Assembly (NCBI RefSeq): GCF_963921235.1 | Contig: NC_086097.1 | Location: 158,226,001-158,290,000 of the forward strand | Length of the DNA stretch: 64,000 nt | Reading direction: 5' to 3' | From: Mobula hypostoma | Taxonomy: Eukaryota | Shown here: positions 20,183 to 60,478 of the stretch, one piece after another | How the letters are laid out: every line of letters begins with the position of its first letter | How positions within the stretch are numbered: the first letter of the stretch is position 1 | Notes under the pieces: generated by a model | Seen by the model: only the letters and a program-made list of their open reading frames with translations | What the model was told of the DNA's origin: nothing | The model's database searches: none | Program-made: the position numbers and the translations under genes

Positions 20183-20284
20183 CAACACACATCAAAGTTG
20201 CTGGTGAATGCAGCAGGCCAGGCAGCATCTCTAGGAATAGGTACAGTCGACGTTTCGGGCCGAGACCCTTCGTCAGGACTAACT
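20183..20284 (-). mobile_element. Solo hammerhead/pLTR insertion, 102 bp, 12-bp TSD
   Basis: TSD ttaattgtttag at 20171-20182 and 20285-20296. The insert is nearly identical to the reverse complement of 6182-6283. Confidence 0.9.
20245..20280 (-). ncRNA. Minimal hammerhead ribozyme motif, intact core
   Basis: The minus strand reads agtc-CTGACGA-agggtctcggccc-GAAA-cGTC-gact. Confidence 0.8.
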
Positions 20285-21452
20285 TTAATTGTTTAGACCA
20301 ACTTTCCAATATAACAATGAATAGAATTTTTTATATAATGTTTTAACCTAAAAATGACATGCCCATATGCTTAGCAGGTACATTGATATAAAAAGGTACC
20401 CGAATAAGCCACATAGCATAAAGTTTGCTTCAAGAGCAGGTTTTTAAGCAGTTTTTCTCTGAAAGGAGAAATGAGGAAGAGATGTGGAAGGGTATGGGAA
20501 TTGAATTTCAAAGTTTGGGGTGCGTACTGCAGGAGGTGTGGCCACTTAAACTCCCGAAGATGGCAGCTCAGATGCAAATACAGTGCCAAAAGAAACCCCT
20601 GAACAACACAGGTGCTCGACTGTCATCACAAATCTGCTGCCTGTGGGCAGATTGTTGGTTGGAGGCCATCAACCATCATAGAGTGGCTGATTAAAAATCA
20701 GGGGATAATACTATAGCCAATGAGAGCAAATTCAGTCAGTCATAATGATAGGAGTACAGTAAAAGGAGAAAAACTAGTTTAAACTGTGTTTATTTCAGTG
20801 CACAAAAAGTGACAGGTAAGGCTGATGAAGTTGTTGGTGATTGGTTGTGGGACTGGGATGTCATAACCATAACAGGAACATGGTGGAGGGAAAGGGGTAG
20901 GCTAGGCAGCCCAGTGTTCCAGGATACTGATGCTACAGGTGTGACAGAGATGTAGGTAAGAGAGGGGTAGTTGTTTTCTTGATGAAAGAGGACACAACAG
21001 TCATTCTTAGAGAGTATATTCTTGGGGAAATCATCAAATGAGGCTATATGGGTATAACTTAGAAATAGAAAGGGAAGTAGGGAATGGTCGTTCTGTCAAG
21101 ATTGTATTATTGCCCCCACCCCATAGTCAGCAGGAATTGGAAGAGCAGAAATGTGGAAAGTTTGCAGCTAGTTTGTTAACATAATAGGGTAGCATTAGTG
21201 AGAGATTTTAACTTCCCTAATATTGACAGGGCCAACCATGCTGCGAAAGGCTGGAGTGGATTGAAATATTTGAAATCTGTCCTAGACAGCTTTTTGGAAA
21301 CGACTTAGGGCAAGTTGTGGAAGTGCCTGTTGGCAAGCACTTTGGATCCTGTGACTATAATTCAGTTAGTTTTAAAATAGTGACCGAGAAGGATGTGGTC
21401 AGTTCATGGATTAAGGTCCTGAACTAGAGCAGAGCAAATTTTGGAGCCATTA

Positions 21453-21581
21453 CACGAGGAATTCTGCAGATGCTGGAAATTCAAGCAACACACATCAAAG
21501 TTGCTGGTGAACGCAGCAGGCCAGGCAGCATCTCTAGGAGGAGGTATAGTCGACGTTTCGGGCCGAGACCCTTCGTCAGGA
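21453..21581 (-). mobile_element. Solo hammerhead/pLTR insertion with 5-bp TSD; hammerhead core intact at 21548-21582
   Basis: catta at 21448-21452 and 21582-21586. The minus strand reads gtc-CTGACGA-agggtctcggccc-GAAA-cGTC-gact. Confidence 0.85.
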
Positions 21582-22011
21582 CATTAGACAGGATTTTGCA
21601 GTTGTTAATTGAGCAAGATTGTTTGCAGGGAAAGGAGCATCTGCCAAGTGGAAGCCTTCAGAAATGTAATGCCAGGAGTTCGGGGCCTGTATGTTCCTGC
21701 TAGGATGAAGGATAAGGCTGGCAGATGGAGAGGATCTTGTTTGAGGAAAGATGTTGAGGCTCTGGTTAAGATAAAGAGGGGGCATACACTGCACTTGAAG
21801 ATTACAATCAAGAGGGGTGCACTTCAGAGAGATGTTAAGAGGGCAAAAATAGCATATGAGAAGGATCTGGCAGACAAGGTGAAACAAAATCCCAGGCGAT
21901 TCCATAGGTATGCTAAGAGTATAAGGGTGACTAGGGAGAGAATAAGTCACCTTAAAGGTCAATGTGGCCATTTGTGTGTGAAACCAATGGAAATGAATGA
22001 GATTTTTAATG

Positions 22012-22173
22012 TTTCAGGCCGAGACCCTTCGTCAGGACAAATTCCTGACAAAGGGTCTCGGCCTGAAACGTCGACTGTACCTCTTCCTAGAGATGCTGCC
22101 TGGCCTGCTGCGTTCACCAGCAACTTTGATGTGTGTTGCTTGAATTTCCATCATCTGCAGAATTCCTCATGTT
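22012..22173 (+). mobile_element. pLTR insertion with an inverted duplication of the hammerhead core, 14-bp TSD
   Basis: TSD tgagatttttaatg at 21998-22011 and 22174-22187. The 27-bp arms 22011-22037 and 22043-22069 have one mismatch. Confidence 0.9.
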
Positions 22174-22699
22174 TGAGATTTTTAATGAACACTTCTCATC
22201 AGGTTTTACTGTGGAGAAACAATGGAAGTTGAGGAAATGGAGAAATGAATGGTGTTGTTTTCGACCATTTACCAGTCAGCAGGGAGGAGGTGGTGGAGGC
22301 TTTAAAGTATTTTTGAACATAATGTAGAACAAAACACAATACAGGACTTTCAGCCCATGACACAGTGTTGACCTTTTAACCTAAAATCAATCTAACACAT
22401 CCCTTCCACTTAATCCTCCATTTAGATTTCATACATGCAGCTTTCTAAAGAGTCTTTCAAATGTCCTGAATGTATCAGTCTCGACAACCACCCCTCCCCT
22501 AACCAATGAAGGTTAACACACAATATGCGTTATTAACAACCCCATCAACTTTAGAGGGATCTGAGAACTTGGATTCCAAGAACCCCTCTGTTCCTCCACA
22601 CTGCTAACATGATATCTGAAATACTGTAGTCTTCTCCCGTCACTAATCCTCATTCGTTACAATCGTTTTTGAATTTCCATTTGCCAATACTCAAAAGGG

Positions 22700-23790
22700 C
22701 AGCCAAGGGAATCAAAGGAGTTAGTCACCTGGACCATATTGACTACATGTCAGGATTCTGAAAAAGGTGGCTGAAGAGATTGTGGCAACAATAGTAGTGA
22801 TCTTGCAAGAATCATAAGATTCTGGAATGATTCCAGGGGACTGGAAAAGTGCAAATGTCACTCCACACTTTAAGAAGGGAGGGACTCAAAAGACATGAAA
22901 TTAGAGGCCAGTTAGCTTGACTACAATGGTTAGAGTCCATTATTAAGGCACATGATAAAATAGGCCAAAGCCAGCATGGTTTCTTAAAGGGAAATTTTGC
23001 CTGACAAATCTGTCGGAAATCTTGGAGGAAATAATAGGCAGGATAGATAAAGGAAAGTCAGTGGAAGTTTTTCACTTGGATTTCCAGAAGGCCTTTAACA
23101 AGATGCTGCACTTGAGGTTGCTAAATAAGATGAGAGCCCATGGTATTACAGGAAAGATACTAGTATGTATAGAAGGTTGGTTTACTGATGGAGAGAGTGA
23201 GAATAAAAGGGACCTTTTCTAGCTGGCTGCCTGTGTCTACTTTTCATGTTATATGTTATCATTCTAGATCACGGAATTGATGATGTCTTTATGACCAATG
23301 TTGGCAGACTGTAAAAGATGGGGGCCAGTTGAGACATTCTTAAGACTACATTTGGAGTTCGTGAGCAGTTTTGGAACCATAGCCTAGAAAACAATGTGCT
23401 AGCATGGAAGAGGAAGTTTACAAGAATGATCCCAAGAATAAAATGGTTAATATTCGAGGAGCATTTGATGGCTCTGGGACTGTACTTGTTGGAGTTTAAA
23501 GAATAAGGTGGGATCTCCTTGAACCTACTGAATATTGAAAGTTGTGGATAGAGGATTTGTAGTAGTCAGAGAGTCAAGGGTCAGAATGAAGAATGTGCTT
23601 TTAGGGTGCATTTAGAGCAGAGATGAGGAATTTCTTTAGCCAGAGGGTGGTGAATCTGTGGAAATTGTTGCCACAGACCACTGGGAATGAGAGAAGGATG
23701 GAAATGGACTTTGTATACATTTGGTATAAATGGTTGCTTGATAGTTGATTGAATGGGCCAAAGTCCTGTTTCCATGCTGTATGACACTTT
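22700..23790 (+). mobile_element. CR1 LINE RT to 3' end, with deletions
   Basis: IPGDWKSANVTP.FKKG; SQHGFLKG; LDFQKAFNKM.HLRLLNKMRAHG. Confidence 0.85.
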
Positions 23791-24931
23791 AATTCTCAGT
23801 GAATTCTAGTTACCGCATTACAAGAAAGATATGATTTCATTCAAAAGGTCTCAATAAAGGATTATGATGTCAGAACTGGAAAATATTAGCTGTGAGGATA
23901 CATTAAATCAGCAGGGCTGTCTTCTTTGGAATAAAGGAGATTAAGCGAGATATAATTGAGGTGTTTGAAATTATATTATGTTCAGATATGAATAGAAAGG
24001 ACCTGCTTCCTTTGACAGAACCAGAGGGATTGAAAATGGCAGGAAGATTAGAGGGGAAATGGCTGCAAGTACTTTCAGAACTGATTGGGTTGAGGCAGAA
24101 ACTCCATATTATAGAAGTATATTAATACAGTATGTACTTGTAGAGCTGTGACCTGCAAAGCTGCTCACTGAAATTGAAATGGCTTGGGCAATTACTCAAC
24201 TGGTCATTGTAAGTTATTCTGTGATTAGGTTAGTGTTAAAATAGTTGTGTTGGAAGGACCTGTTGTGAGCTTTATCACTAAATGAGTAAATCCGACATCA
24301 GATCTCCCTATTGAAATATAATGTTAACTTTAACAAAGTTTTCAGTGCTAAAATTTAACAGCCTTACATGTTTGTTGAAGTAAGATCACCAAGTTTTTTT
24401 GTTTTATGAACCAATTTAACCTATTTCATAAGGAAATGAAATAGCAGAATTTATGTCGGATATTCTAATACCCTTCTTACATTTCAATTGTGCTGCTGTA
24501 TTTTTGCCTTTAGGAGTTTTATTATTTCAATAAACAAGAGCAAAACTCGAAGGTTGGACAGCAAATCTGAGGAGCACAATGACATTGATTTGATTGCCAA
24601 GACCTAGATTGCTTCACTTTGAGTACTGCTGGTGGATGTGAATTTTTTTTTGCCGCTGAGCGTGATGGAAGTTCTGACATTCTATGATGTGAGACATCAG
24701 GTAAAGTAGCGGTAGAATGCAAAGCACCCTACCTGGACAAGGGTGCATCTGTGTCTTTTTTTTAAAAAAAAGAGTGCATTCGAGCTGCAAGAGTATCTGT
24801 TTCAGTATTGTATCCAAAGTGGAGAAGTTCTTTTGTGGGGAGAAACTACAGCTTATTATTTTTTAATAAATCCGGAAAATCATACAGGAGTGAGAAGACC
24901 ATGTTTTGCAGATCTTGTAGTTTTTGATTAT

Positions 24932-25492
24932 ACACACAGTGGCTACATTATTAGGTACACTTGTATACCTGCTCATGAATAGAAGTATCCTATCAGCCAA
25001 TCATGTGGCATCAACACAATGCATAAAGACATACAGACATGGTTAAGAGATTCAGTTGTTGTGCAGACCAAACATCAGAATGGGGAAGAAATGTGATCTA
25101 ATTGACCATGGAATGTTTGCTGGTGCCAGATGGGGTAGTTTAAATATCTCAGAAATTGCTGATCTTCAGGGGTTTCACACATAAGTCTCTAGAGTTTACA
25201 GAGAATGGTCTGCAAAGCAAAAAAAAACATCCAGTGAGCAGCAGTACTGAGGGCAAAAATGCCTTGCTAATGTGAAAGGTCAGAGGTAAATGGCTAAACT
25301 GATTCAAGCTGACAGGAAGGCAACAGCAACTCAAATAGTCACATATTACAACAGTGGTGTGGAGAAGAACATCTCTGAATGCACAACATGTCGATTCTTG
25401 AAGTGCATGTGCTACAGCAGCAGAAGACCACGAAAGTAGACTCGGTGGCTACTTTATAAGGTATAGGAGGTACCTAATAATATTACTGAGTG
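24932..25492 (+). mobile_element. Tc1-like non-autonomous deletion derivative
   Basis: TIR-like ends (acacacagtggctacattattaggtac / gtacctaataa...actgagtg). From the ATG at 25080 there is a frameshifted MGKKCDL...GARWG..ISEIADL.GF...SRVYREW HTH. Confidence 0.8.
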
Positions 25493-25884
25493 AACTTTCG
25501 GTGTAGTATAGCTTATCACGTAGGTTAAGAGGTTGTTTAAAATAAAGATTTGTGCATCCTTAATTAAACTGTGCTGTGCAAGAACCCTTGCCCTCACAAA
25601 GATCTCATTTTAGGATGTGAGCCAATGGTACTTTGGAGAATGCTCTGAAGGGGAACTTATGAAAGATGCTTCCCAATTATCGTATGTACCAGAAGCTGCA
25701 CATTGTGCCATGGGAGAGTGAATGTGCAGAACAGAGAAAAGTTATGGGCATTAAAGAAGTTCAGCTAAGCTATGAAGCCTGCCGTGACTTGGCACCAGAG
25801 CACACAATTAACCTTAATATTCACCCTGGCCCTCACTCCTTCCTCCTTATATTGATTTGTATCTTATTTTCTGGGAGAAGCAAA

Positions 25885-27910
25885 ATCTTTTCTTTATCAA
25901 TCTTTTTATTAATTTTTAAAAAAGTACTTACAAGTAAATACAAACGAGGAGAATTATCTCAAATATCTATATCGATAACAATACATATAGAAGGTAAAAT
26001 AAATATTATCAAGATCATACATGGTAATAGTCTAATAATATATAATAAAAAATAAGATAATTCTCCTCTTATCATTTCATAAAAAGAAAAAGAGATAAAG
26101 AAACTTTTATAATTTTTTTTATATATTAAAACTATTCTCTATAAACAAAAAGAAAAAGCAAAGAAAAGGGGACTGGGCAGCCCTTACTGAGAGTAAAAGC
26201 AAGAAAAAAGAGAAACTTTCTGATCAAATCCAAAGTTTTGAGAAAGTAACTGGAAGAGCAATAAATCAAACCATATGGAAATATTGAATAAAAGGTAGCC
26301 AGGTTTCTTCAAATTTAAAGGATGTATCAAATGCTTGACTTCTTATTTTCTCTAAGCTTAGGACGTAATGGAGGAAAGCCAATAAAAAACAGAATCCTTC
26401 CATTTAAGCAAAATGGCTCTCCTAGCTAATAAAGTTGTGAAAGCTATCATCTGTTGAGTGGAAACAGTAATATATCCTACTTCCATCCAGTGAAATGATC
26501 CCAAAAATTGCTGTAAATAAATTTGGTTCTAGGTCCAAATTCAAGACTTTCGATAATGTTTTAAAGACATCTTTCCAAAAATTATCTATCTTGATACAAG
26601 ACCAAAACATATGAGTTAAGAGTAACCACCTCAATATTACATCTGTCGCAAATAGGATTAATATAGGGAAAATACGGGCTAATTTATCTTCTGACATTTG
26701 TGCCCGATATACTACCTTGAACTGTATCAAGGAATAATGAGCACAAATAGATGAAGTATTTACCAAATGAAAAATTTTATCCCATTGATTATCTGAAAGT
26801 GACTATCAAAATTCCAATTCCCACACGCCTTTAATTTTATTGTTAGATTCCTTTCGCAAATTCAATAACCGTTTGTAAATTATAGCTATCAGTTCTTTTT
26901 GAAATGGTTTAACCTAAAAAAGGGTATCTATCATATTGGGTGGATAAGCAAAGGGAAAAATTGGAAGTAAACTATGTAAAAAATTCCTAATTTGTAAATA
27001 TCTAAAAGAGTGTGCAGTAGATAAGTCATATTTGTCCACTAACTGAGTGAAAGACATTAAACAATCTCCCATAAACAAATCTAAAAAAGTAATTGTTCCT
27101 TTGGTTTTCCAAATTAAAAAGGTCTGATCGGAAATCGATGGTTTAAAAAAAAATTAAGATGGATTTTACTAGAAAGAACAAAGTTATTAAACTCAAAAAA
27201 TCTACGAAACTGAAACCAAATTCTTATTGTATGTTTAAAAATTTATTTTTTTTAGATTATGAGGACACTCAGTCCTCATGTTTTGTCATTTAGAAATGCA
27301 TGCATGCATTAAGAAATGATACAATGTACCTCCAGAGTGATATCACAAAAAAATAGGACAAACCAAAGACTAACACTGACAAGACCACATAATTGTAACA
27401 TAAAGTTACAGCAGTGCAAAGCAATACCATAATTTGATAAAGAGCAGACCATGGGAACGGTAAAAAAAGTCTCAAAGTTCCGATCGACTCCCGATAGTCC
27501 CAATAGCAGGCAGCAGAAGGGAGAAACTCTCTCTGCCACAAACCTCCATGCACCAATAACTGTCGATGCATTAGAAGCACCCGACCACAGCCGACTCTGA
27601 GTCAGTCTGAAAACGTCGAGCCTCCGACCAGCCCTTTGACACCAAGCATCATCGCTGCCGAGCTCTTCGACCCTGTCCCGGCCGTCAAGCAATAAGCAAA
27701 GCCAAGGACTCGGGGCCTTCCCCTCCGGAGATTCTGGATAGGTTAGACACAGATAATGGGATTGAGGTCTTGACTACCAATCTTAGAAAACAAAAAAGGA
27801 AGAGGAGCTCACAGTAAAGAGGCCAAAGAATACTCCTTCACCGAGTTTTTCTCCAAATCCACCCATAAAGGACAATCAGAGAAGCAATAATCTTAGAAAG
27901 CTAATGTTGG
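25885..27910 (-). mobile_element. L1-clade LINE 3' portion (ORF2 C-terminus and UTR), interrupted at ~27240-27740
   Basis: VNTSSICAHYSLIQFKVVYRA...LTHMFWSC...NFWKDVFKTLS...AIFG resembles the Cys-rich C-terminus of fish L1 ORF2. Confidence 0.8.
27240..27740 (-). mobile_element. Unclassified GC-richer retroposon fragment nested in L1
   Basis: Abrupt compositional switch inside the AT-rich L1, a T-rich left end (A-rich tail on minus), and CpGs retained. Confidence 0.5.
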
Positions 27911-28611
27911 TACTGCTGAATAAAGAATCCCTCTCCACAATCAAACCAGTCCCATAGGCAGTGATTAGGCATATGTAATAGCAAATGCACAAATCTCTTA
28001 ACCAAGGTGTAGCCTCCTTCTGAACATATTCGAGCTGCAAGGCACGCGTTGGGTGAAGAAAATAACTGTTCAACACATTTCATATTCCTGTGTTATAGTA
28101 GATTAAACGTGCTCCCTCGTCTTCTTCAGTGTGTCAAACTGTAATGAACTGCCACAAGGCAAGACATTGCCGGATGAAAATGGCAGAGTTTGTCATCAAA
28201 ATGTCTGTCATAATCGATACCTGTACTTGGCTGGAAGCTTGAGAAAAGTTTATTCATCATATACACCAGGAAAGCATTAGATCATTTTTCAATAAATTTC
28301 AAGCTTATGGTGAGATCAAGTGTCTAACTTATCGTACAAAAAACGTGTTCTACAGTCTGATAACATTAGGATAGAAGCTGTCCTTGAGACTGATAATAAT
28401 ATGCTTTATGCTCTTGTATTTTTTTTGCCCGGTGGCAGAGAGCAAGCGAACTAGTATCTTAGGTGGGTGGGGTGCATGATTATGCTGGCTGTTTTACTGG
28501 CAATGAGAAATATAGACAGAGTTCATGGCAACAAGGCTGGTTTCTTTGATGTGCTAAGCTGTATCCACATCTCTGCATTTTCTTGTGGTTGTGTGCAGAG
28601 CAGTTACCATA

Positions 28612-29340
28612 GTTCAAGTTCCAATTTAATTGTCATTCAACCATATATGAATGCCATGAATACAGCCAATCGAAACAGTGTTACTCCAGGACCAATGTGC
28701 AAAAAACGGTACCAACGTTCATACACAGCACAGGGCACATGTACAATAGCAAGCACATAGATGATATCAGTAAAATATATTCACACAAATAATGTATAGT
28801 CCAAGACCCTGAGTCCATGAATGTTGCAGCAATCTGCAATCAAGCACAATATAGTTTACCTTCTGCTGAGCCACACTGGGGGTATCACTGACTGACACCT
28901 CTCCCCTGAGTGGCTGTAAACAAGTGACGTCATGGCTTGAGGCCTAGTGGTTGCTACGACTGAGACCTTGCAGCTCCCCTGCCAGCCACCAATAAATCAG
29001 TGAATCGGACATAGCATTCCGCATTAACTGTGTTCAATGAGGTCTTGCGATGACAAGAAAAGTGACAAAGATAATTACTCGCTGTTAGACTGCACACCAC
29101 CTTCAAGTACCAACTCCTCCGACACTTCTCTGTCAAAGGCAGCAGCGTGATCTGCACCAAATCCAGCTCCTTCAGTTTCTCTGTCAATGAGCAACTCAAT
29201 GATGAGGCAAAGCTGCAATACTTGAAGATCTTAATGTCCAGCAGGATCTTGTGATCATAAAAAAAAATACCTCTTAAAAAGACAATAACACCTTCGGTTA
29301 ACCCCATAGAAACCACTGCAACCAAGCACGCTGCCATCTC
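28612..29340 (-). mobile_element. Non-coding retroposon with Rex1-like tail, nested in a Rex1 fragment (28300-28611, 29341-29400)
   Basis: The minus strand begins gagatggcagcg and ends aattaaattggaacttgaac, the (TTGAAC)-type tail also seen at 52870-52885. Confidence 0.5.
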
Positions 29341-29879
29341 ACCAGATAGAAGGCTTTATGTGCGACATCAATTAAAAATTGGTAGCTGTGTATATTGGGG
29401 TCTTATTGACACATTTTATATGTGTGGGTCAGCAGAAAGAGTAGAGAATACAAGTCCCTACCCTAGCCAGCCTGTCTATTGTTTTAGACTAACTGGGAGT
29501 TTTTATGTTATATTGGCAGAGCCTGTGCTTCCCTAGAGCAGAGCCCCACACAGAATGTAAATTTACTTCATGAGAAATGCATGAACACAAGAATCAACTC
29601 TAAGACATTGTGTGCTCAAGGGACAATGCCAGAGTAAAAAATGTTTCACTGAAGCTGAACATGGTATGTGATGCCAGGCAACTTGGGGAATTGACAGTGT
29701 GATTAATAGTACTGTTTTTCTGAGGATGTTTGAAGTCAAGTTGATCATTATTGTTCACCCTTCCTGTGTTGTGCTATCTTTCCATAGTGCTTTGTTTAAA
29801 CAAATGGCAGTTGATAGATAAAACTTTCCAGTCTTCTAGAATAGCTTTAGCTATTTTTACTTAGAAAATCAGTCTGCCC

Positions 29880-30470
29880 TGGTCTGTGCAGATGGAGTGG
29901 AAACAGCTTATCCTCTGTTTCAAAGGCCTTTTATCAGAACAGGGAAAGAGAAAAAGGTAAGAAAGGAGATAGCTCTGGTACAGTGACACTCGCTCGATGA
30001 GTCACTGTTTCACTTGAAAGGACTGTTCAGGTCCCTGGATAGTTTGAGTGGTGAAGGAACAAATGTTGCATCTCCTGAAATGTTGGAGGAAGTTGTATGA
30101 TATGGGAAATCAGAGACGGGACAAACAGACCAAGAAATCATGAAAGGAGCGAACCCTTATAAATACTGAAAGGTGGGGACAATAGGTGACTAGTAGTGGA
30201 ATCTGGTCAGAATCTTCCATCCTCACCTCTTCCAGTTTTCAGAACGTGGCCTTCACTACATCGGAGAAACAAAGCCCAGATGGGATAGAGCACCTGTACC
30301 CAGTTCTCAGGAATGATCCTAAACTTCCAGTTCCCTGCCACATTAATTTATTATAATATCTCAGTCTGACTTTTATGTGTGTGGCCCAATGCAAGCTTCA
30401 GAAACAACACGTATCTGCTGTCTGGACTCACTGTAACCTAAAGAACACTGTGCCTACTTCTCGAACTTTG
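29880..30470. mobile_element. Heavily decayed Penelope-like element with an internal inversion
   Basis: Minus-strand pLTR and linker remnants at 29880-30200, then plus-strand GLHYIGETK...EHL...LPV..H at 30245-30350. Confidence 0.55.
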
Positions 30471-30909
30471 GATAACTTCCTCTTTGTTTGTATCAGTAGT
30501 GACCATTTCCCTTTGCCATCACCTTGGCTCAGTGTTGCTTTTTCTCTTTGTATCATCTGGCAAGCTGGGCATGTCTTACAACCTTACTGTTAGCAATATA
30601 TTATGCATTTAGAAGTTTAAATTGATCTTAATTGCTCAATATCTACCTTCATTAGAGATCAAACCCCACACTATCAGAGAAATTTCCTTTGTTTTACCCA
30701 TTCCACTCCCCCATAGACGTTACCTACTTTACTCAGAATATTCAGCATTTGCTATTTTACTTCAAATTTTCAGCATTTGCACATTTTTCAGTTCTCAGTC
30801 TTAAGGGATTGCATGCACAGAAAAAGTGGAAGAAGTTCAAGAATTTGCTTTCTGTCTTATTTTGCCTGTAAAACCATGAAATTTCTTGGCCAGTGGGAAG
30901 ACGGGTTTC

Positions 30910-35487: not shown

Positions 35488-35600
35488 GGTTCTGATGAAA
35501 GGTCATTCAGAAGAAATGTTAAGTGCATTTCTCTTTAGGCCACTGACTGTTCTGTTGAGTATTTCCAGCATTTATTGCTCTTACTAGAATTCAGCCTCTT
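35488..35600 (+). mobile_element. Old solo pLTR with decayed hammerhead
   Basis: CTGATGA 35492-35498...GAAATGTT, then tgagtatttccagcattt. Confidence 0.55.
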
Positions 35601-37360: not shown

Positions 37361-37580
37361 GAACTGCAGAGGCAGGAAAGCTTACACTGTGACAGAATAT
37401 ACTGGAAATATTCTGCAGATCAGGCAGCATCTGTGATGGAGAAGTAATGAAGGTTCAGGTCACCATCTATTTTCAGACTGGTGGATCCTGATGAAAGGTC
37501 ATTGACTTGAAAGATTAGTTGCTTCTTTCTCCATAAGTACGACCTAACCTGCTAAATGCTTGCAGCATTTGTTGTTACTT
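37361..37580. mobile_element. Old head-to-head inverted pLTR pair
   Basis: Minus unit at 37361-37479, then plus unit CTGATGA 37488-37494, aggtc/gactt stem, and GAAA 37509-37512. Confidence 0.6.
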
Positions 37581-46620: not shown

Positions 46621-46760
46621 ATACAAGGGATTCTACTGAATCTGGAAATCCTGAGCAACTAACAGAAAATGCTGGAGGAACTGAGCAGGACAGGCAGCAC
46701 CTATGGAGTGGGAAAAAAAAACTGTCAACGCTTTGGGCCAAGACCCTTCATCAGAACTCC
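46621..46760 (-). mobile_element. Solo pLTR insertion, intermediate age, 11-bp TSD, hammerhead GAAA box mutated
   Basis: TSD taattttctaa at 46610-46620 and 46761-46771. The minus strand reads CTGATGA-agggtcttggccc-AAAGcgtt-gac. Confidence 0.85.
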
Positions 46761-50189: not shown

Positions 50190-51325
50190 AACCTTTACGC
50201 AGACTTCGAGGCATGCAACACAACACCAGCCATGAACTCTACCCTCTTCCCAGGTGAACAGCCACTGTCTGTAACAGAGCAGAGGTGAGAAGGACTCTGC
50301 AGAGTCAATCCCCGTAAGGTGGCTGGGCCAGACAGCATCCCAGGCTGAGTACTAAGGAAGCATGCACACCAACTCACTGGCGTCTTCTTGGACATTTTCA
50401 ACACTTCATTCATCCAGGCTGCTGTCCCCACATGCTCCCTGATTCAGAGAGGAGGTGGAAGAACTTGAGCCTGAAGCCAGGCAAATAAACTCTTCCTTAA
50501 TGTCAAGAAGACAAAGGAGATGGTTATCAACTTCAGGAGAACTCGCACCACTCACACTCTTCCCCCAGCCCCCCGCTTCACATCAGCAGCACAACAATGG
50601 AAATTACTAGCAGTTTCAAACTCCTGGGAGTGTACATCATACACAACCTCTGATGATCCCAGATTACATCCTACATAGTCAAGAAAGTTTACCAATGCCT
50701 CTACTTTCTGAGGAGGCTGAAGAGAGATGGACTTTGCACAACTGTACTCACATTATTCTACAGATGTGTAGTAGAGAGCATCCTAACAAACTGCATCCTT
50801 GCTTGGTGCGGAAACTACAGTGCGTTAGACAGGAAGGCTCTACAACTGGTAGTCAAAACTGTCCAATGCATCACTGGCACTAGCCTACCCACCATCAAGG
50901 GCAGATATATAGAAAGGTGCCAGCAAAGGGCCAGTAACATCACGAAGCCCCCCACACACCTTGATTGTGGACTATTTGTCCCACTTCATTCAGGGAGGGG
51001 GCTACCTAGCATCCATACCATAGCAGTCAGACTGAAAAACAATTGTATTCCCCAAGCTGTGAGACTAATCAACACCTCCACCCATTAACTCCATACCTAT
51101 TTTATTATTTCCCATTATTTAGCGGCACTTCATGGACATACAATTAATCTATGTATATAAACTATCTTATTTATTTACATCATTTGTGTGTGATTTTTGT
51201 TATTATTGCGTTCTTTATCTTTTGTGTTTTTTGTGTTGTTTCGGATCTGGAGTAACAAATATCTTGTTCTCCTTACACTTGTGTACAGGAAATGACATCA
51301 AACAATCTTGTGTCTCGAATCTCTC
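50190..51325 (+). mobile_element. Rex1/Babar-type LINE with internal deletion
   Basis: RVNPRKVAGPDSIPG, GVFLDIFN.S, NVKKTKEM.INFRR, SSFKLLGV. Confidence 0.85.
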
Positions 51326-51929
51326 TTAAGGTTAAATATCTGACAATTCACCTTTGTATTTAATTCAACAATTTCATCTCTACAGCTGTTTGGGTAAAGT
51401 GTTCCATTGCCTTTGAAGAGAAGAAATTCTTTCTTGCTTGTGTCTGCTACAGGTGATCTCATACTTGTAGACGGCACATTTTAGTTCTGCATGTCTCATT
51501 AGTGGAATCGTGTTCTTGACATTCAGCTTGTCCAAACGCAGAAGTCTTTTGGGTCTAAAGGAGAATGGAAAGTTAGATCTGTTATTGTCCTTGTGGTTGT
51601 GTAACTGGATCGTAAACAAGTAGCAATTCATAAGACTTGATAATAAAGAGGAATGATTCAGACTTCAATGCACGATGATAGAAGACATAGAAAAATTGCT
51701 ATTTTAGTTGAAAGTGAGGAAGAAATCTTTATTTTGCAAGAAGGCAGAATGCAAGTACTACATGTATTTCTGGTCACTGAACGCTGAGGAGATTTATGAA
51801 GGCATTGCTAATGTTGAAAACTTTTTGTTTGAGCAGGAGAGATTAAAGGAAGATTTAGCTGAGTTGTCTAAAAAAAAATGGGTGTCCCAATTAGACTGGA
51901 ATAGAAAGGTCTCTTTCCTTTAGTAAAGG

Positions 51930-53330
51930 GAAAAGTTAATTTATTATTGTCACATGTACCAAATTACAGTGAAAAACTTACTTTGCGAAGTGAAACAGTA
52001 ACAAGATGGAGAATAAAGTATAAAACCTATTGAAAAAGTGCAGTGCAGGTAGTTAATAGTAGACTGAGGTCAAAAGTCAGTCTTGTCCTCCTAGGGTATT
52101 GTTCAATAGCCTTATTGAAGTTGTCCTTGAGCCTTGTATGTGTACGTGCTTTCAGGTTTTTCTATCTTCTGTCTGATAACAAAGGGGAGAAGAGAGAAAG
52201 AGCGTGATGGGTGGGTTTTTGATTGTGCTGTTTGCTTCACCGAGGCAACAAGAAGTGCAGACGGAGTCCATGGAGGGGAGGCTGGTTTTCGTGATGTGCT
52301 GACCTGTGTCCTCAATTCTCTGCGGTTTCTTGCAGTCACGGGCAGAGATCTTGCCATACCGAGATGTGATGTATCCAGTATAATGCTTTCTCATGTGCAT
52401 TGATAAAAGTTATTGAGTTTGATGGGATCATGCCAAATTTCTTCAGCCTCCTAAGGAAGTAGAGGTACTAGTGAGCAGTTGCAAGAAAAGTTGCATCCAT
52501 CATCAAGGAACCACATCATCCAAGCCTTACTCTCTGGTCACTGCTGCCATCGGAAAGAAGGTACAGGAGCCTCAGGACGCACACCAGCAGGTTCAGGAAC
52601 CGGTGGAGAAAACTTCACTTACCCCATCACTAAACTGTTCCCACAACCTCTAAACTCATTTTGAAGGACTGTTCATTTCATGTTATTGGTATTTATTGCT
52701 TATTTTTTATTAGTATTGAAATTTTTATTTGTATTTACACAATTTGTCATCTTTTACAAATTGGTTATTTGTCTGTCTTATTGGGTGCAGTCTTTCATTG
52801 ATTCTGTTGAGTCTTTTGTGTTTCTCAGGGTTGTATATGGTGACACGTGTATTTTGATCATGAATTTACTTTGAACTTTGAACTTCCTTGGCTATGGCCT
52901 CAATGTGGTTATACCAAACAGGTTATTGGTGATGTTTGCTCCAAGGAGCTTGAAGCTTTCAACCCTCTTAACCTCCACTGTTGATGTAAACGGGAGCATG
53001 TGCACTGCCCCCTTCACCTTCCTGAAGTCAGTGACACTTGCTGACATTGAGAGAAAGATCAGTATCATGCACAATATCATGAGCCTCTCTTACTCCTTCC
53101 TGTAGTCCATTACTTGAGATATTACCTACTACAGTGGTATTACCTACAAACATAGATGCAGTTAGAGAAGAATCTGGCCAGAGTTGTGAGTATATAGAGA
53201 TAAAGGACTGAGGACATAGATTATTGCGGCACCATTGTTGAGGATAATGATGGTGGAGGTGTTGCTACCAATCCTTATTGGTATCTGTTGATCATGAAGT
53301 CAAGGATCTTGTAGCAAAGGAGGTGTGAGT
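51930..53330 (-). mobile_element. Rex1/Babar-type fragment containing an opposite-strand Rex1 3' end (~52470-52885)
   Basis: Minus-strand RDCKKPQRI.DT.QHIT.TSLPSMD and VESFKLLG; plus-strand insert ending ttgaactttgaact. Confidence 0.75.
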
Positions 53331-53379
53331 TGAGTCTTGGACTTCGGAGATGTGTTCAAAAACTGAAGAGCAATAGATT

Positions 53380-54080
53380 TAGAGTCGTAGAGTCATATAA
53401 CATAGAAACAGGCCCTTCAGCACAAATGTTCAGTTCCATTCAAGGTTCCCATTTAAGCAAAGCCCATTTGCCTGTGTTGGGCTCATATTGTTCTAAACCT
53501 TTTATATCATGTAACTGTTCAAGAACCTTCGAAGTGTTGTTAATGTATCTGCATCAACCATTTCTTCTGACAGCTCATTCCATGTACTTATCACCCTCTG
53601 AGTGAAAAGGTTGTCCCTCGATTCCCCAACCCTGGTAAACTTTATGCAATGAATAAAGTCCCAACCTGTGCAATGGCTGTCTGTAACTCAGTCCCCTGTG
53701 TCCAAAGAACATCCTTGAAGGTCTCCTCTGCATTCTTTCCAGTTTAATAGTGTTTTTCCTATAGCAAGGTGACCAAAACTGAGCACAGTATTCCAAATGT
53801 GGATTTTCTGTTGTAAGACAACAGGAACTCATAATTTGTATACTCAGTGCTCTGACTGAGAGAAGCTTGTGTGTTTTCATCTTTCACCTGTTCTTGCAAG
53901 GATATATTTACTACCCTGTTGACCTGTGACATCACTTTCAAGGAACTATACTTGTACTCCAAGATCCCTTTGTTCTGAATAACTTCCCAAACTCCTATCA
54001 TTCATTGAGAATGTCTTACCCAGATTTGTCTTCCCAAAATGGAACACCCCACATTCATGGAATTAACCTCCATTTGAAGT
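53380..54080 (-). mobile_element. CR1 3' fragment
   Basis: PHLEYCAQFWSPCYRK..IKLERMQRR. Confidence 0.85.
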
Positions 54081-54684
54081 AAGGAAAAATAAAATAAAGA
54101 AACTTGGTGAATATTTGGAATGAGCTGTCAGAGGAAGTGGAAGAGGCTGGTAAAGTTACAACATTTAAGACATTTCGACAGATAAATTATCATGAAGGTT
54201 CGGGGGCACGTGGGCAAAATACAGGGAAGAGGAATTAGCTCAGGCAAGTAATTTGGTCAGCATGTATAAATTGGGACAAAGGGCCTGCTTTTATGTTGCA
54301 TGACTCTATGATTGTTGATGTTGGAAATCTAAAATAAAAACCGAAATTGCTGGATATATTCAGCAGGCCAGGCTGAGTTTGTGGGAAAATAAACAGAACT
54401 GATTTTTCAGGTTGAGTGATGGAGGGTCGAAGAATGTAGAACATGGAACAGTGCAGCAGAGGAACAGGTTCTTTGGCCCACGATGTCTGTGCCGACCACG
54501 ATGCCTGTCCAACCTAACCCCATCTGCCCGCAAGTGGTCCATGTCCCTCTGTAACCTGCCCGTTTCTATGCTTGTCGAACCATCTCTAAATGTTGCCGTT
54601 GTATCTGCTTCCACCACTTCCCCTGGTTGTGCATGTCAGGCACCTAACACCCTCTGTGTAAGGAAAAGAAACAAAACTTACCTC

Positions 54685-56150
54685 ACAGTGGCCACCCATT
54701 TAAATTCTGCTTCCCATTCCTGTTCCAATATGTCGATCCATGGTCTCCTCTGCTGTCGAGATGAAGCCACACTCAGGATGGAGGAGCAACACCTTATGTT
54801 TGTCTGGGTAGCCTCCAACCTGATGGCACGAACACTGAATTCTCAAACTTCTGTTAATGTACCCCCCCCCACCGCCTCTCTATTCCCCATTCCCTTTCTC
54901 CTCTCTCACCTTATCTCCTTGCCTGCCCATTGCCTCCCTCAGGTGCTCCTCCCTGTTTTTCTTTCTTCCATGGTCTTCTGTCAGCTTCTATTACATTCCA
55001 AAATCAGAATCAGAATCAGCGGCATGTGATGAGAAATTTGTTAACTTAGCAGCAGCAGTTCAATGCAATACATAATCTAGCAGAGCGAGAAAAATAATAA
55101 TAAATAAAATAAAACAAAACATAATAAATAAACAAGTAAATCAAATTACATATATTGTATAGATTTTAAAATATGTGCAAAAACAGAAATACTGTATATT
55201 TTTAAAAAAAGTGAGGTAGTGTCCAAAGCTTCAATGTCCATTTAGGAATCAGATGGCAGAGAGGAAGAAGCTGTTCCTGAATGGCCGAGTGTGTGCCTTC
55301 AGGCTTCTGTACCTCCTGCCTGATACTAACAGTGAGAAAAGAGCATGCCCTGGGTGCTGGAAGTCCTTAATAATGGACGCTGCCTTTCTGAGACACCGCT
55401 CCCTAAAGATGTCCTGGGTACTTTGTAAGCTAGTGCCCGAGATGGAGCTGACTAGATTTACTGTTTTCTGCAGCTTCTTTCGGTCCTGTGCAGTAGCCCC
55501 TCCATACCAGACAGTGATGCAGCCTGTCAGAACAGTCTCCACGGTACAACTGTAGAAGTTTGTGAGTGTATTTGTTGACATACCAAATCTCTTCAAACTC
55601 CTAATAAAGTATAACCACTGGTGCCTTCTTTATAACTACATCAATATGTTGGGACCAGGTTAGATCCTCAGAGATCTTGACACCCAGGAACTTGAAGATG
55701 CTCACTCTCTCCACTTTTCATCCCTCTATGAAGATTAGTATGTCTTCCTTTGTCTTACCCTTCCTGAAGTCCATAATCAGCTCTTTCATCTTATTGACGC
55801 TGAGTGTCAGGTTGTTGCCGCAGCACCACTCCACGAGTTGGCCTATCTCACTTCTGTACACCCTGTTGTGACCACCTGAGATTTTACCAACGATGGTTGT
55901 ATCGTCAGCAAATTTCCCTTCTCCAGCCCTGCACCTCTTTCACCAGTCAACTTCCCAGCTCTTTACTTTCGCTCCCCTCTCAGTTTTACCTGTCACCTAG
56001 TGTTTCTTCCTTTCCTTCCCCCAACTTCTAGATCTGACTTTTTCTCCAGTTCCGCTGAAGGGTCTCATTCTGAAATGGTGACTGTTCACTCTTTTCCATA
56101 GATGCTGCCTGGTCTCCTGAGTTCCTCCAGCATTTTGTGTGTGTTACTTG
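54685..56150 (+). mobile_element. Penelope-like 3' end (54685-54999 and 55915-56150) split by a Rex1 insertion; hammerhead decayed
   Basis: VATHLNSASHS..MSIHGLL...EATLRMEEQHL. The UTR resumes at ~55915 and is followed by ccgctgaagggtctcattctgaaatggtgactg and the pLTR tail. Confidence 0.8.
55001..55912 (-). mobile_element. Rex1/Babar-type LINE 3' part, well preserved
   Basis: KRFGMSTNTLTNFYSCTVETVLTGCITVWYG...HPGHALF...FRNSFF; FADDTT at the right end; (GATTCT)n tail. Confidence 0.9.
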
Positions 56151-56829
56151 CCTCCTAAACCTCCTTTAAATGTTTGTTGCCTTACCTCAAAGCTATGCCC
56201 ACTAGTATTTGGCATTTCAACCTTCAGAAGATACGAGTAACTATCTCCCCTATCTGTCTCTCATAATTTTAGATACTTCTATCAGGTCACTCATCAGACT
56301 GCTTCAGATCACCCAGACTCTCCTTACAGCTGCAACATCCTGGAGAACCTCTTCCTGTATGGCTGCGACCAAAACTATACACAATACCCCAAATATAGCC
56401 TAATCAAAGTTCTACACAGCTGCAACTTGTCTTTGCAACTTTTATATTCAACACCCTGACCAATGAAAACAATATGCCACCTTTACCATCCTACTTACAG
56501 GTGTTGCTACTTTCAAGGAGTAATTGATTTGCTCCCCAAGTCCCCCCCTCCGTACATCAGTATCCTTGGAAGTCCTGCCTTTTACCATACTTCCTTCTTG
56601 TATTTCACCTCCCAGTTTGCAGCATTTCACTTGTCCAAATTCAACTCCATAAATGTTAACTCTGTTCCTTTTTCCACAGATGTGGTTTAATTTGCCAAGC
56701 ATTTGCTGCATTTTCTGTTTTTATTGCAGATTGAAGGTACTTGGTAGGATGAGAACAGGATAAAGGAAATATTTTCATTCAGAACATTGTAGACATCTGC
56801 CTGAAAGGAGGGGAGAGGATAAAACTCTC

Positions 56830-57017
56830 ATTCGTTTTCTCCTTTTGCTTGTTCTTTCTTTCCTTTCTTTTCTATAGGTGTACACCTCAGATAAATATTA
56901 TGTGGAAATTTGAGGCAAATATGATTGTATGATATATATGTACAATATCTGAAATACATCTGATGGAAATGTCTGTTTAATGATGAACTTCAATAAAAAA
57001 TAAATTACAAAAAAAAG
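56830..57017 (+). mobile_element. Poly(A)-tailed retroposon 3' end (L1-like UTR)
   Basis: AATAAA at 56992-56997 followed by an A-rich tail. Confidence 0.5.
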
Positions 57018-57186
57018 ATTTATGTTCAAATTGTATTTGGATGTGCAGTCTAAGACCTCTGTGGAGCAAGTTTTGGAAAATGGGATTAGGTGAGAAGCTC
57101 TTTATTTTGATTAGGCTGGAACAAATATGACTGCTTATTCTTTCAGACATTCAGAAGGTGCTTGGCAACCTGTTACCAGTGGGGTG

Positions 57187-57738
57187 TATGGGGTGTCAGG
57201 GAGGGGTAGCACCTCTGGTGGGGGAACATGTCGCGTCCTTTTCAAGGTGGTTAGTCCACCTTTGGTCCCCACCTGGCACTCAGCTCTCACCTGTGGCTCC
57301 CCGTAGCTGTTTGTATGCGACAGCGGCCACACCCCGGGCAATGGCTTTGACAAGCCGGCTAAACCAGGTGAGGGTAGCCGATGGGTCTCAAACCCTCAGT
57401 GAGATAGCGAGTTGTCTATCCCAGCATGTGAAGACAGACTCCGGCAGATTGAGCGGACGAGACCAATGGAAGGCCCAATGGTCAAGAAGGAGGTCTCTGC
57501 AAGCGTCGTGGAACGTGTAGAGCACGACAAGACACAGAAGACGTCCTGGTCATCCACTGCACCTAGTCCCATCTCCAGCCGTCTCGACTCTGTCTTGCCA
57601 CTGGATCCAGATGGGAATTGGGAAGAGAGCGTGAGGCTGACACTGCGCAACTCTCCTTCACTTAAATCCAAATTGTGCTAGTTTCGACACCATCATAATA
57701 GTGTCAAGGTCCTCATTGATGTCGACGATGGATGAACA
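57187..57738 (+). mobile_element. Apparently full-length non-coding retroposon (552 bp) headed by an HDV-like ribozyme, inserted in a decayed CR1 RT
   Basis: TSD accagtggggtg 57175-57186 / accagtgggatg 57739-57750 splits the CR1 VTSGVPQG motif. A homologous copy lies at 115-549. Confidence 0.85.
57190..57374 (+). ncRNA. HDV-like (nested double pseudoknot) self-cleaving ribozyme candidate
   Basis: P1 GGGGTGT 57190-57196 / ACACCCC 57329-57335; P2 CTCTCACCTG 57284-57293 / CAGGTGAGGG 57365-57374; P3 GGC 57295-57297 / GCC 57326-57328; L3 TCCCCGTA; P1.1 CC 57299-57300 / GG 57336-57337; GCAA; P4 GGCTT/AAGCC; J4/2 GG-C57359-TAA. Confidence 0.75.
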
Positions 57739-59554
57739 ACCAGTGGGATGCCACAAGGATTTGTTTACATTATGTGTTGGAGGAATAAAGTGAATGGACA
57801 TTTGGCCAGATTTGTTGATTACATAATAATAAGTGGGAAGGTTAACTGATGAGGCCGGTGACATAGAGAGAGATATTGATAGGTTAGATAGGCAGGCAAA
57901 TGATTGGTGAAAGGAAAGTAATCCAGGAAAATGAGCAGTCCTTTATGTTGAGAAAGAAAATTCCTATTCCTTGTGTTCTTTATTTAATTATGCAATCTAT
58001 CTCTTTAGAATTGCTGTATAAAAGCACTCCCTACCTTTTGGGTACTAGTGTCTGCAGATAACCTTCAGAGAAGTGCTCTGATAGGAATCTAAGGATATTG
58101 TGAACAATTCTTGTTGCAAAAAAGAACCTGAAAATATTTTGGCTTTGTGTGATGTGAAAGTGAGTTTTAGCGGTGCTTCAGGCCATAATTACCTCTCACA
58201 TAGGCAAACTGTGGCTGCAAATTTACCCTAAATTTACATGTTTGGTTTGACATTTTCTTGAAAACTGTTTCCACATTAAGTGAACTTTGAAGTGTACATG
58301 TTTTTATCATTCTTAAAGACTTTGATATTTCAATTTTAATCTCATGTCTTTGTGGTCTTTAGTCCTAATTGCACTCATCTCAGCCTGGGCATCAGTCCTG
58401 GCTGCACTTAACTTTTGTGGTAATGGAACTTCTATATTGTCAAGGTCTTAAACGTAGTGGCGATGCTTGTAGGCAGCCTCTGCACCTCAGCCAGTGCATG
58501 TATCACCCATCAATGTCTAGTCCTCCAGCTCAGGATGTTGTAGAACTGGATCTACACTTTGTGGTGATTCTTGCTACAAAGGATGAGATCAAATGCAGAG
58601 ACATCTTAGCTCCAGTGCATTCAATGCAGGGTGCAGGAGTAGAATTAATGAATCTTCTTACCTGTGAGAAAGCTATAATAGCAGACCTCTATCACCAAAT
58701 CTTCATGAACCGTTTTCTGTGAGTTTGGTGGTAAGAAACATTGGTTTTCCATTTGCACAGAATTTGGCCCATACCTCTCATTAGAAGTATCCCTCTGTTG
58801 CAATGTAGAAGGCTGGTTTCCTGAAACATACTTGCCATGATTCTTTGATTTTTGTAAGGTGTTCTGTTCTCTTTAGATCTTTTGCGTGTGCTGTGGTGTT
58901 TTCTAAAGGCAGTGCTAGATGGCTGCTTATTGCTATTAACCATTGCTTCGCATGAAGGTGGAAGAAATTTGCCTTCTGAACTCTAACTTGACGGCTTCGG
59001 TGGTTGCAGTCAATTTTTCATCAGAGTGCTTTGTATGCTTAGTAAAATCAGTTTAAATGTATACATGGTGTATTTTCCAGCTTGATTTGAATCAATATAG
59101 CTGAGGTTCTATTGATGAAAATCAAATTCTTGGAGGGTTCACTCCGTTGTCAAATCCTTGGCTCTTCCACCAGCAGCAGCTATATGATTTTCTTTCCCTT
59201 TTTTACTCCCACTCCTTTGGGACACATTATCTCCCCCCCCCCCCGCCATGAGTGGAATCTGAGTGGAGGCCCTTGAGGTCAAATTTCTGTTCATCCCATC
59301 AGACTTATAAATGTTTCTGGACTTGTTGACTTGATTTGCATGTTATTTTTGAGTTGGTGTGTACTCATCATTTTTTTGTTGCACAGAAATCCTTTTCAGA
59401 AATTGGCATGTCTGTTGTTTGAAGGTTATTCTAGCAGTTCCCGGACCAAGTCAGTGCTTAAGTTCTAATTGAAAGTACATCATGATTTGCTTCTCATTCC
59501 CTGCTGGAAAACTTGGACAGAATCGCTGTCAAGTAAGCTCATGTGTTGCCTCTA

Positions 59555-59862
59555 GAGAGCAGCAAACAGAGCTGCTGCCTCCCAGAGTCAATCAGTCCTA
59601 ATCTCCGGGGTTGTCAGTGTGGAATTTGCTTGTTCCTCCTGTAACTGTGTGGTTTACTCTGGGTTCTCTGGTTTCCTCCAACATCCCAAAGTCATGTGGA
59701 TTGGTGGGTTCATTAGCTACTGTAAGTTGCTGAAAGTTTGAAGCTGAGTAGCTGAATATGGGAGCAGTTGATGAGAATGTAAGGAGATGAAAACTGGCTT
59801 ATTTAAAGTGGGTGTGTAGACTTTGTAGGCTGAAGGGCCTGTTTTCATGCTGTATGATTCTA
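59555..59862 (+). mobile_element. V-SINE/HE1-like SINE
   Basis: gagctgctgcctcccag head; ggtttcctccaacatcccaaag core; ggctgaagggcctgttttcatgctgtatgattcta CR1-like tail. Confidence 0.75.
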
Positions 59863-60273
59863 TAAAAATATCAAAAAACTTTAATCCCTCCTTCCATTGA
59901 GGATTAACCTCAAATTAAGAAAGAGTGAACCAGATGAGGTAGTAATATGTTGAGGTTTGAGGAGAAACCTTTACACCCAGAAAATGGTTGAAATCTGGAA
60001 TGTACCATGTTTAGTAAGTATTTAGATAAGCACTTGAATTATCAACACATTAGAAGCTGTAGGTCATATGCTATTAGATGGAATTAATGTATTTGGCTAC
60101 TTGATGATCAGCATGGACAAGTATTAAAGCTATCTAAAATGCTTCAAAGATAGAAGAACATTTTAGAAGTTAGAAGATGAGCCCGGAATAAAGGTCTTGG
60201 CCCAAAATGGCAAAAGGTTTATGCCCCTGCTGAGTTCCTTCAGCATTTTGTGTGTGTGTTGCTCATTTGAGAA

Positions 60274-60478
60274 CAAGCAACGCACATAAAAGTTGCTGGT
60301 GAATGCAGCAGGCCAGGCAACATCTCTAGGAAGAGGTACAATCGACATTTCGGGCCGAGACCCAGGGTCTTGAAATGTCGACTGTACCTCTTCCTAGAGA
60401 GCTGTCTGGCCTGCTGTGTTCACCAGCAACTTTTATGTGTGTTGCTTGAAATTCCAGCATCTGCAGATTTCCTCGTGT
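60274..60478. mobile_element. Palindromic head-to-head pLTR insertion, 15-bp TSD, placed in the tail of an older pLTR (~60180-60273)
   Basis: Arms 60274-60351 and 60372-60448. TSD ttgctcatttgagaa 60259-60273 / ttgctcattttagaa 60479-60493. Confidence 0.9.

Follow-up and report, generated by a model that had tools for sequence, protein, structure and literature searches.

In the genome of Mobula hypostoma, about a quarter to a third of the copies of a Penelope-like element (PLE) begin within a few letters before a predicted hammerhead ribozyme, and not at its predicted cut site. The underlying peak of 5' ends was first noticed in a single stretch of DNA and is here confirmed as real and genome-wide. 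That stretch, hereafter the window, comprises 64,000 nt of contig NC_086097.1 (positions 158,226,001–158,290,000, forward strand). Its six named inserts, together with a longer copy at 5302–6320, are the 3' ends (pseudo-long terminal repeats, pLTRs) of one kind of element. Element positions are counted from the first C of the hammerhead core CTGANGA, which is 0, on a majority reference built in-script. Published sources are cited by accession and for the available part of their text.

PLEs are the sister group of telomerase reverse transcriptases (RTs). The reference monomer, built from long genomic copies, is 3,510 nt in length and has one open reading frame (ORF) of 1,016 aa, in which RT motifs including YIDD are followed by a C-x4-C-x2-C linker and then by the endonuclease (EN) motifs of the GIY-YIG type (GVIY-CxxC-LYIGET). 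All eight of eight homologues carry the RT family PF00078 and one carries the GIY-YIG family PF01541; a Pfam scan of three ORF fragments returned no family. The ORF stop lies at -296, the predicted cut at +27/+28 and the ATG of the next ORF at +166. The core, stem II, GAAA, a palindromic stub and stem I, in which -5/-4 to -1 would pair with +28 to +32, can all be read in the pLTR, making this a predicted ribozyme, although the motif went unmatched in Rfam. An Rfam match to mir-5681 at 60330–60393 was dismissed as an inverted repeat scoring far under the family cut-off. Partial tandems forming pLTRs occur at loci L064, L070, L075/L078 and L077 and at 20 further read-through loci. With its RT and GIY-YIG ORF, partial tandems, an inverted 5'-truncated copy with an optional tail and a hammerhead in the pLTR, the element is classed from its sequence as an EN-containing (EN+) Penelope-like retrotransposon. 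By the linker it would be of the Neptune type as defined in PMC8557442 (CX2-5CxxC), a linker to which that of Nematis is similar. Extrapolation from 1.6 Mb gives about 100,000 insertions in the genome, some 30,000 of them short.

The distribution of 5' ends was measured in sixteen 100-kb genome blocks whose positions were chosen blind. Arms were called young at an identity of at least 86% and a 3' end within +55 to +145, which gave 71 arms, or 62 once ten copies in a single minisatellite had been collapsed to one. Position +4 is reached by 45 young arms, of which 16 end within the 13 nt from -8 to +4, and none of 29 ends in the adjoining 13 nt (-21 to -9). This corresponds to 0.032 ends per nt in the hot spot against 0.0019 upstream (15 ends in 8,019 nt at risk; 17-fold, p 3e-12) and 0.0036 downstream at +5 to +60 (10 ends in 2,792 nt; 9-fold, p 1e-7). 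The window from -8 to +4 was picked post hoc, so constant-rate simulations were scanned for their best 13-nt window, and none of 20,000 matched 16 ends. Counting per insertion gave 14 of 40 in the hot spot, a 19-fold excess. At the predicted cut site the rate was that of the background (one end in +25 to +31, 354 nt at risk), and no excess of 5' ends was found in these blocks at +25 to +43; a slight shoulder lies at +5 to +24 (5 ends in 944 nt). Loci that had been found by a query starting at -3 were excluded from all rates, since their -3 ends and the three recurring bases before them reflect selection bias. Recurrence of the peak in older families is supported by the same blocks, where the pyrimidine tract upstream is missing from 45 of the 113 cores that could be recognised, a few of them being borderline. 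A weaker second cluster may exist at -47 to -30 (blocks on C1, C21 and C40; loci L009, L022, L247, L260 and L263); it is not significant, with 3 of 29 in the random blocks. At G000:C45:60014108-60024159 (L187-L188), a solo unit from -3 to +91/95 has grown to ten copies within a minisatellite array.

Whole-genome counts of exact matches refined the position. Patterns anchored on young-family bases +5 to +11 and +35 to +44 matched 94,246 times, falling to 77,261 when -2 to +3 was added, 59,664 with -11 to -6 and 56,256 with -18 to -13. Mutation alone breaks 11 and 7 of 100 such six-mers among the 100 matches listed, so that the share of copies reaching -2, -11 and -18 is about 92%, 68% and about 66%, respectively, the last assuming a retention of about 90%. 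Extension past -2 by one base at a time left 73,953, 67,889, 62,338, 60,542, 58,849, 56,648 and 55,058 matches, which corresponds to losses of 4.3, 8.2, 8.2, 2.9, 2.8, 3.7 and 2.8% from -3 to -9, against a mutational mismatch of 1.6% per site on average in 63 long copies. The bases at -4 and -5 are mismatched in 3 and 2 of these 63, and part of the losses there may therefore be variation. Among the 77,261 copies the final matching base is mostly -3 or -4; the mode is at -4/-3 and a tail extends to -8. Where the base before A-4 is not T, it is C in 2,281 copies (the anchor is specific to the young family, and a small share of these C-preceded ends may be matches at family boundaries), G in 1,813 and A in 1,457; G thus exceeds A although the genome is AT-rich, yet C is the most frequent.

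The copies in the window from which the peak was first suspected are as follows.

5302–6320, plus strand: long 5'-truncated young PLE copy, about -873 to +130, with the ORF end carrying GIY-YIG (frame 5298–5885), a 296-nt 3' untranslated region, the hammerhead and a tail.
6182–6222, plus strand: hot spot and minimal type I hammerhead of the long copy (-8 is 6182; core from 6190), as read from the sequence with a predicted fold only.
6185/6186–6189 and 6218–6222, plus strand: 5' and 3' strands of predicted stem I in the long copy; predicted cut 6217/6218.
20183–20284, minus strand: solo tailless unit, -8 to +95, about 102 bp; 12-bp target-site duplication (TSD), 20171–20182/20285–20296.
21453–21581, minus strand: solo tailed unit, -3/-2 to +127; TSD of only 5 bp, 21448–21452/21582–21586, weak alone.
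22012–22173, both orientations: head-to-head insertion; 14-bp TSD, 21998–22011/22174–22187.
37400–37580 (outer limits approximate), both orientations: older-family head-to-head insertion, arms meeting at about 37481–37487, about -5 and -2.
46621–46760, minus strand: older-family solo unit, 5' end at -6; 11-bp TSD, 46610–46620/46761–46771.
60274–60478, both orientations: head-to-head insertion; TSD of about 15 bp with one mismatch.

The long copy runs past the hot spot, as do about two thirds of copies. The original prediction had held that three TSD-bounded solo inserts begin just upstream of the core, and their 5' ends at -8, -3/-2 and -6 bear this out, the 5-bp TSD of the second being weak support for an insertion on its own. 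The older-family solo among them is 71% like the young family. Its claim that inversion points fall at or within the ribozyme was correct for all three: at 22012–22173 a minus arm from -3 to +24 (22011–22038) is separated by 4 extra nt from a plus arm of -2 to +130 (22043–22175); at 60274–60478 a minus arm of +8 to +97 (60274–60363) adjoins a plus arm that starts at +7 (60364, with a 5-nt gap) and extends to +131, placing the junction 60363/60364 inside the ribozyme; and the arms of the older-family inversion meet as given above, where a TSD was looked for and none was seen. The sharp peak at stem I that it anticipated for a genome-wide histogram is present, and its observation that the ends do not lie at the predicted cut agrees with the single end in +25 to +31. 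The minus arm at 22011–22038 has its 3' end at +24, near the predicted cut, the sole such arm among those examined; it could result from priming on a cleaved 3' end.

The 3' ends fall into two groups, at +91 to +99 and at +122 to +136 with a mode of +129/+130, giving tailless units of about 100 bp and tailed units of about 135 bp from 3' starts at about +95 and +130. The convergence of 3' ends in the original prediction is thus borne out, with two points of convergence; the microhomology to the target that it described is present as an overlap of 1–4 nt at the 3' junction in 15 of 27 copies with a TSD of at least 7 bp, a count that has no null comparison. In PAc, a Poseidon element of Anolis carolinensis, RT likewise starts at two internal sites matching the PLE tail (PMC11167929), and by this analogy the two 3' groups represent the known tail signature of two internal RT starts. 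Short and long copies carry the same subfamily alleles (32:14 versus 67:37, p 0.58), so the units appear to be by-products of the autonomous element. An independent family of solos resembling short interspersed elements (SINEs) was rejected on the same allele split and on the variation of the ends between -8 and +4.

Junctions at the hot spot are clean, extra bases being present in 1 of 11, compared with 8 of 16 at other positions (p 0.04; some short TSDs outside the hot spot may be chance), and TSDs directly abut the ends in 10 of 11 resolved hot-spot solos. The scarcity of extra bases indicates that no upstream exon is attached, and the direct abutment of TSDs led us to reject splicing of a short first exon, or of a host exon, to -6/-2 as the main route. 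For three hot-spot solos without a near TSD, no convincing distant TSD was found within 1.5 kb.

Inverted insertions, in which two arms were copied at one site, provide a second kind of evidence. We compiled 51 inverted pairs with hand-curated ends (16 from the random blocks and 35 from targeted loci), scored as stopping when they ended within -8 to +8; 14 have an arm ending downstream. In the 37 pairs with both arms reaching the motif, the arms agree in 35 (9 stop/stop, 26 pass/pass, 2 discordant), with a binomial p of 2e-5 at the most conservative rate. The random blocks alone gave 2, 5 and 0 (p 0.02), and there is an overall correlation between the ends of the two arms (rho 0.50, n = 16, p 0.025). 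One tailed and one tailless arm are combined in 14 of the 16 random pairs, and the tailed arm is the shorter in 10 of these 14, which indicates that neither arm is a fold-back copy of the other and that both were made on RNA. The tailed-arm lengths thus speak against the model of PMC3846280, in which inverted junctions form by self-priming on an antisense template.

Shared 5' ends also occur within single insertions, the clearest being locus L266:

G000:C50, about 110,316,100–110,316,800 (locus 1581–2320), reverse strand: L266 insertion.

Here two units, -5 to +567 and -5 to +128, lie within one 13-bp TSD and both begin at -5. The inner junction has 8 extra bases, alternatively readable as a degenerate -11. 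At the outer junction are 10 extra bases, partly the reverse complement of the neighbouring target. L260 and L263 are built in the same way, with 5' ends at -47 twice and -46 twice and jumps to +571 and +565, and two other insertions share ends at -503/-504 and at -37/-37. These 5' ends differ between loci and agree within a locus, as expected of a property of the template molecule. Clean junctions, shared ends, arm agreement, the making of both arms on RNA and the position of the ends beyond the motif together favour run-off at an RNA end.

We therefore consider it likely, on balance, that RT starts internally on the RNA, at about +95 or +130, and copies until it runs off a 5' end of that RNA at about -4, with an outer edge at -8. 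Internal initiation would be target-primed, as seen in vitro for the anole PAc; a pair of cDNAs, one per side of a staggered cut, would be copied from a single RNA and then fused head to head; and the limit of copying would be the physical 5' end of the RNA at about -4. That end may, tentatively, be a transcription start at A-4, which like A-8 we take to lie in an initiator-like context, although no downstream promoter element was seen by eye at the expected spacing from -8 or -4. This is slightly favoured over 5'→3' trimming halted at a protein-bound ribozyme, a possible though somewhat less probable origin that fits both the position of the peak and the scattered shared ends; the PAc ribozyme needs protein (PMC11167929). 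In either case the ribozyme marks the place and its cleavage does not make the 5' ends. Modelled pair probabilities for stem I are 0.001–0.016 when the upstream tract is present, 0.69 when the RNA starts at -8 and 0.38 when it starts at -4; the predicted stem I would thus form only without the upstream tract, and an RNA beginning here would be one able to fold the ribozyme. From -9 to -2 the young family reads CAGTTAGTC and older families CAGTC; this 4-nt duplication, which lies in the hot spot, might be the trace of an imprecise jump in the past.

Several points weigh against run-off at such an end. Among copies that read into an upstream pLTR, 14 of 17 pass the site, so a single start at -4 is not the sole template end unless the enzyme jumps seamlessly. 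Scars of such jumps were not visible at -17 to +8 (one indel each in sets of 87 and 86 long copies), and linkage across the site stays high (r2 0.72); strand-transfer scars or linkage loss at -8 to +4 were accordingly discarded as signs of a jump, none being present. A cap-derived G signature at A-4 is at best weak, the conservation of the upstream CAG is also explained by stem I pairing, and a tethered enzyme pair stalling together at a bound protein would give concordant arms too. In D. virilis Penelope, transcription starts on the far side of an intron, 121 nt upstream of helix I (PMC2377424, PMC4209133). Targeted and not random loci supplied 35 of the 51 pairs, some arm ends were assigned by hand, the RNA end is read from DNA copies, and the sequencing-run contigs are RNA by guess. 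Loose ends at -4 in such contigs from two studies, which have a purine-rich consensus and may be related families diverging, were not used.

We also examined whether the enzyme could be halted on an intact, unspliced RNA by proteins at a putative 3' splice site overlapping the base of stem I, or by the protein of the element itself, so that both enzymes on one RNA stop. Evidence for a splice site comes in part from two arrays:

G000:C2:157816556–157817712 and G000:C50:58412481–58412822: tandem 310-nt arrays with units of -6 to +303 and identical junctions.

At all six junctions (four on C2 and two on C50), +303 is joined exactly to -6, just after an AG, and runs into the core; each array has two or more tandem units with a hammerhead in each, as in retrozymes. 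The bases after +303 are ATATCCTTT, which we liken to the minor-spliceosome donor consensus and which is the sole match of this type in the 3,510-nt monomer; L077 carries a GT form of the donor. A pyrimidine tract and CAG precede the core in all families (C-5 in 62, A-4 in 60 and G-3 in 59 of 68), AG occurs at -8/-7 and -4/-3, and these bases double as a splice-acceptor-like signal. The arrays are candidate retrozyme-like elements, resembling what copying of a back-spliced circle would produce. Their junctions suggest that the -6 acceptor was probably used, which keeps a roadblock of splicing factors alive. An obstacle would halt RT on its own 3' side, fitting ends at -4 to +4; the stop rate of the first pass does not differ from that of the second (16/45 versus 3/17, p 0.23); and the D. 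virilis intron ends at helix I (PMC4209133). We nevertheless regard a roadblock as rather unlikely, because it leaves the shared ends at -37, -46, -47 and -503/-504 unexplained, the spliced junction is rare, being present at 2 loci, minor introns of the AT-AG type have no pyrimidine tract and are disfavoured (PMC3584512), notwithstanding the GT donor of L077, and the acceptor used (-7/-6) differs from the mode at -4/-3.

A further explanation is that the folded hammerhead, or cDNA folded back through stem I, stalls RT or triggers a template switch. Travelling 3'→5', a polymerase first encounters stem I at +28 to +32, and structural stalls fall on the near side of a helix. A structural stall would leave ends on the opposite side to those observed, since by -4 the motif has already been copied and unwound, and +25 to +43 shows no excess. 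Random stalling at each pass also predicts about 36–46% discordant pairs, against 2 of 37, and the region folds no better than shuffled sequences (z -0.6). It is true that stem I has its first Watson-Crick pair at the mode (-4/-3), that -4 is joined to +28 through a 4-nt stem I complement in one inversion (C40), that there is the slight shoulder at +5 to +24, and that with upstream sequence an alternative predicted hairpin places -6 to -1 in a loop; we consider this explanation improbable all the same. Alignments ending where families diverge, a SINE-like sub-lineage or selection against longer copies could produce a peak without any stop, and older families, which diverge upstream of -5, would indeed mimic an end there, as seen in the loose contig ends, while one minisatellite grew a single solo to 10 copies. 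Such an artefact or population effect is very improbable: TSDs abut the ends of 10 of 11 resolved solos, the minisatellite was counted once, the ends range from -8 to +4 with different flanks and with the alleles of long copies, and removal of long copies should increase the downstream rate uniformly, whereas the peak stands 9-fold above +5 to +60. Cleavage creating the template's 5' end, as the hepatitis delta virus-like ribozyme does for R2, is hardly credible. One arm starts at +28, which microhomology also explains, and one has its 3' end at +24; against these stand the background rate at the cut, a peak 30 nt upstream with the whole core included, and the PAc data, which in the available text have no ends at the cut (PMC11167929). 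For 5' ends, the low count at the predicted site already refutes cleavage, unless the RNA is in fact cut away from the consensus position. We further rejected a stop at a lariat branch point, which predicts ends at about -25 to -20, where there are 0 of 29, and AT-rich microhomology as the sole cause, as -36 to -24 is more AT-rich and has few ends. The observation behind the original prediction is thus right, the feature being both real and strong and the element of a known kind, and its mechanism is partly wrong: the peak at stem I stands, whereas cleavage does not set the ends, a stall at the fold is disfavoured by ends beyond the whole motif and by shared ends at unrelated positions, and the self-standing, quantised mobile unit of about 130 bp gives way to two sizes of by-product.

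Retroviral minus-strand strong-stop DNA is a short cDNA made near the RNA 5' end, and R2 RT can jump from the 5' end to a downstream part of an RNA, which L266 resembles. A reading along these lines would have transcription start at the foot of the hammerhead, priming in the 5' pLTR and run-off at the cap after about 100–135 nt, followed by a required jump to the 3' pLTR; failed jumps would yield the roughly 30,000 solos, a second jump the partial tandems, and back-splicing of the +304 donor to the -6 acceptor a circle and hence retrozyme-like arrays. As a whole this chain is speculative, and we rate it as doubtful. Unlike retroviral strong-stop DNA, the products here are target-primed and integrated as they are, and homologous transfer to the 3' repeat is a candidate only.

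Much of what surrounds the peak is already known, namely the motif, solo and opposite-strand motifs, the tail, inverted copies and internal priming. Neptune-clade EN+ PLEs share the RT ORF with a C-terminal GIY-YIG, the Cys linker, pLTR tandems, the inverted 5'-truncated copy, a 30–40-nt tail and the hammerhead; the available text describes 5' truncation as variable, and does not describe a preferred 5' boundary or coupling of arms (PMC8557442). In PAc both target strands are extended, a dimer is predicted and uncleaved RNA is the substrate; its ORF starts inside the ribozyme, unlike the ATG at +166 here, and its genomic 5' ends are unmapped in the available text, although the coverage plot in its Fig. 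S2 might show the same step (PMC11167929). The motif resembles the minimal hammerheads of metazoan PLEs, which are of type I with a palindromic helix III stub and an extra base before stem II (PMC4209133). That work found "most motifs widespread as single elements", with some pairs on opposite strands, and took the singles as probably truncated PLEs, proposing cleavage and circularisation; here, the 5' ends lie just before the core and not at the cut. D. virilis Penelope also has a splice acceptor at the foot of helix I, and uses an internal promoter to start transcription within the pLTR; how its tandems form is stated there to be unknown (PMC2377424). That start lies 46 nt plus a 75-nt intron upstream of helix I, and the copies here are without the short first exon. 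The two 310-nt arrays are like non-LTR retrozymes in being pLTR-derived with a type I hammerhead per unit, and differ in that the solos are TSD-bounded monomers and the array junction is splice-site-like and not a ribozyme cut (bioRxiv 10.64898/2026.07.22.740005). In the available portions of the literature searched, which covered sources other than subscription papers and Repbase notes, the 5'-end peak, arm coupling and a splice-like array junction were not found.

These results bear on how PLE cDNA starts and finishes, on the origin of partial tandems and inverted copies, and on the role of the hammerhead. A 17-fold peak across about 100,000 insertions, shared by the two arms of inversions and absent from the cut site, narrows the models, against cleavage and toward an RNA end or a roadblock at -4. 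It accounts for the occurrence of most PLE hammerheads as isolated, intact motifs, and the +303/-6 junction offers a splice-based origin for some retrozyme arrays. The exact positions named here, together with the existing PAc in vitro system, would provide a handle on how PLEs copy themselves by mapping of ends.

Other features of the copies were noted in passing. Loci L075 and L078, like L029 and L030, are near-identical with a common 5' end, and each pair was counted once as a duplicated segment; L075 and L078 both hold the same insert of about 80–90 nt of another repeat in the ORF. Copies in the C18 and C22 blocks and at L069 and L076 jump from about +1016 to -2705, a common internal duplication of about 210 nt that may mark a subfamily (C22, L069, L076). 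In the window, further older-family pLTR remnants lie at 1342–1433, 35492–35580, 14545–14606, 15467–15547 and 55915–56150, and those at 1345 and 35492 seem to start at the core. Other RT ORF fragments, of the long interspersed element (LINE) type, are found at 62674–63640, 9066–9632, 21609–22010, 50657–51088 and 55249–55629, and the inversion at 22012 sits within one of them.

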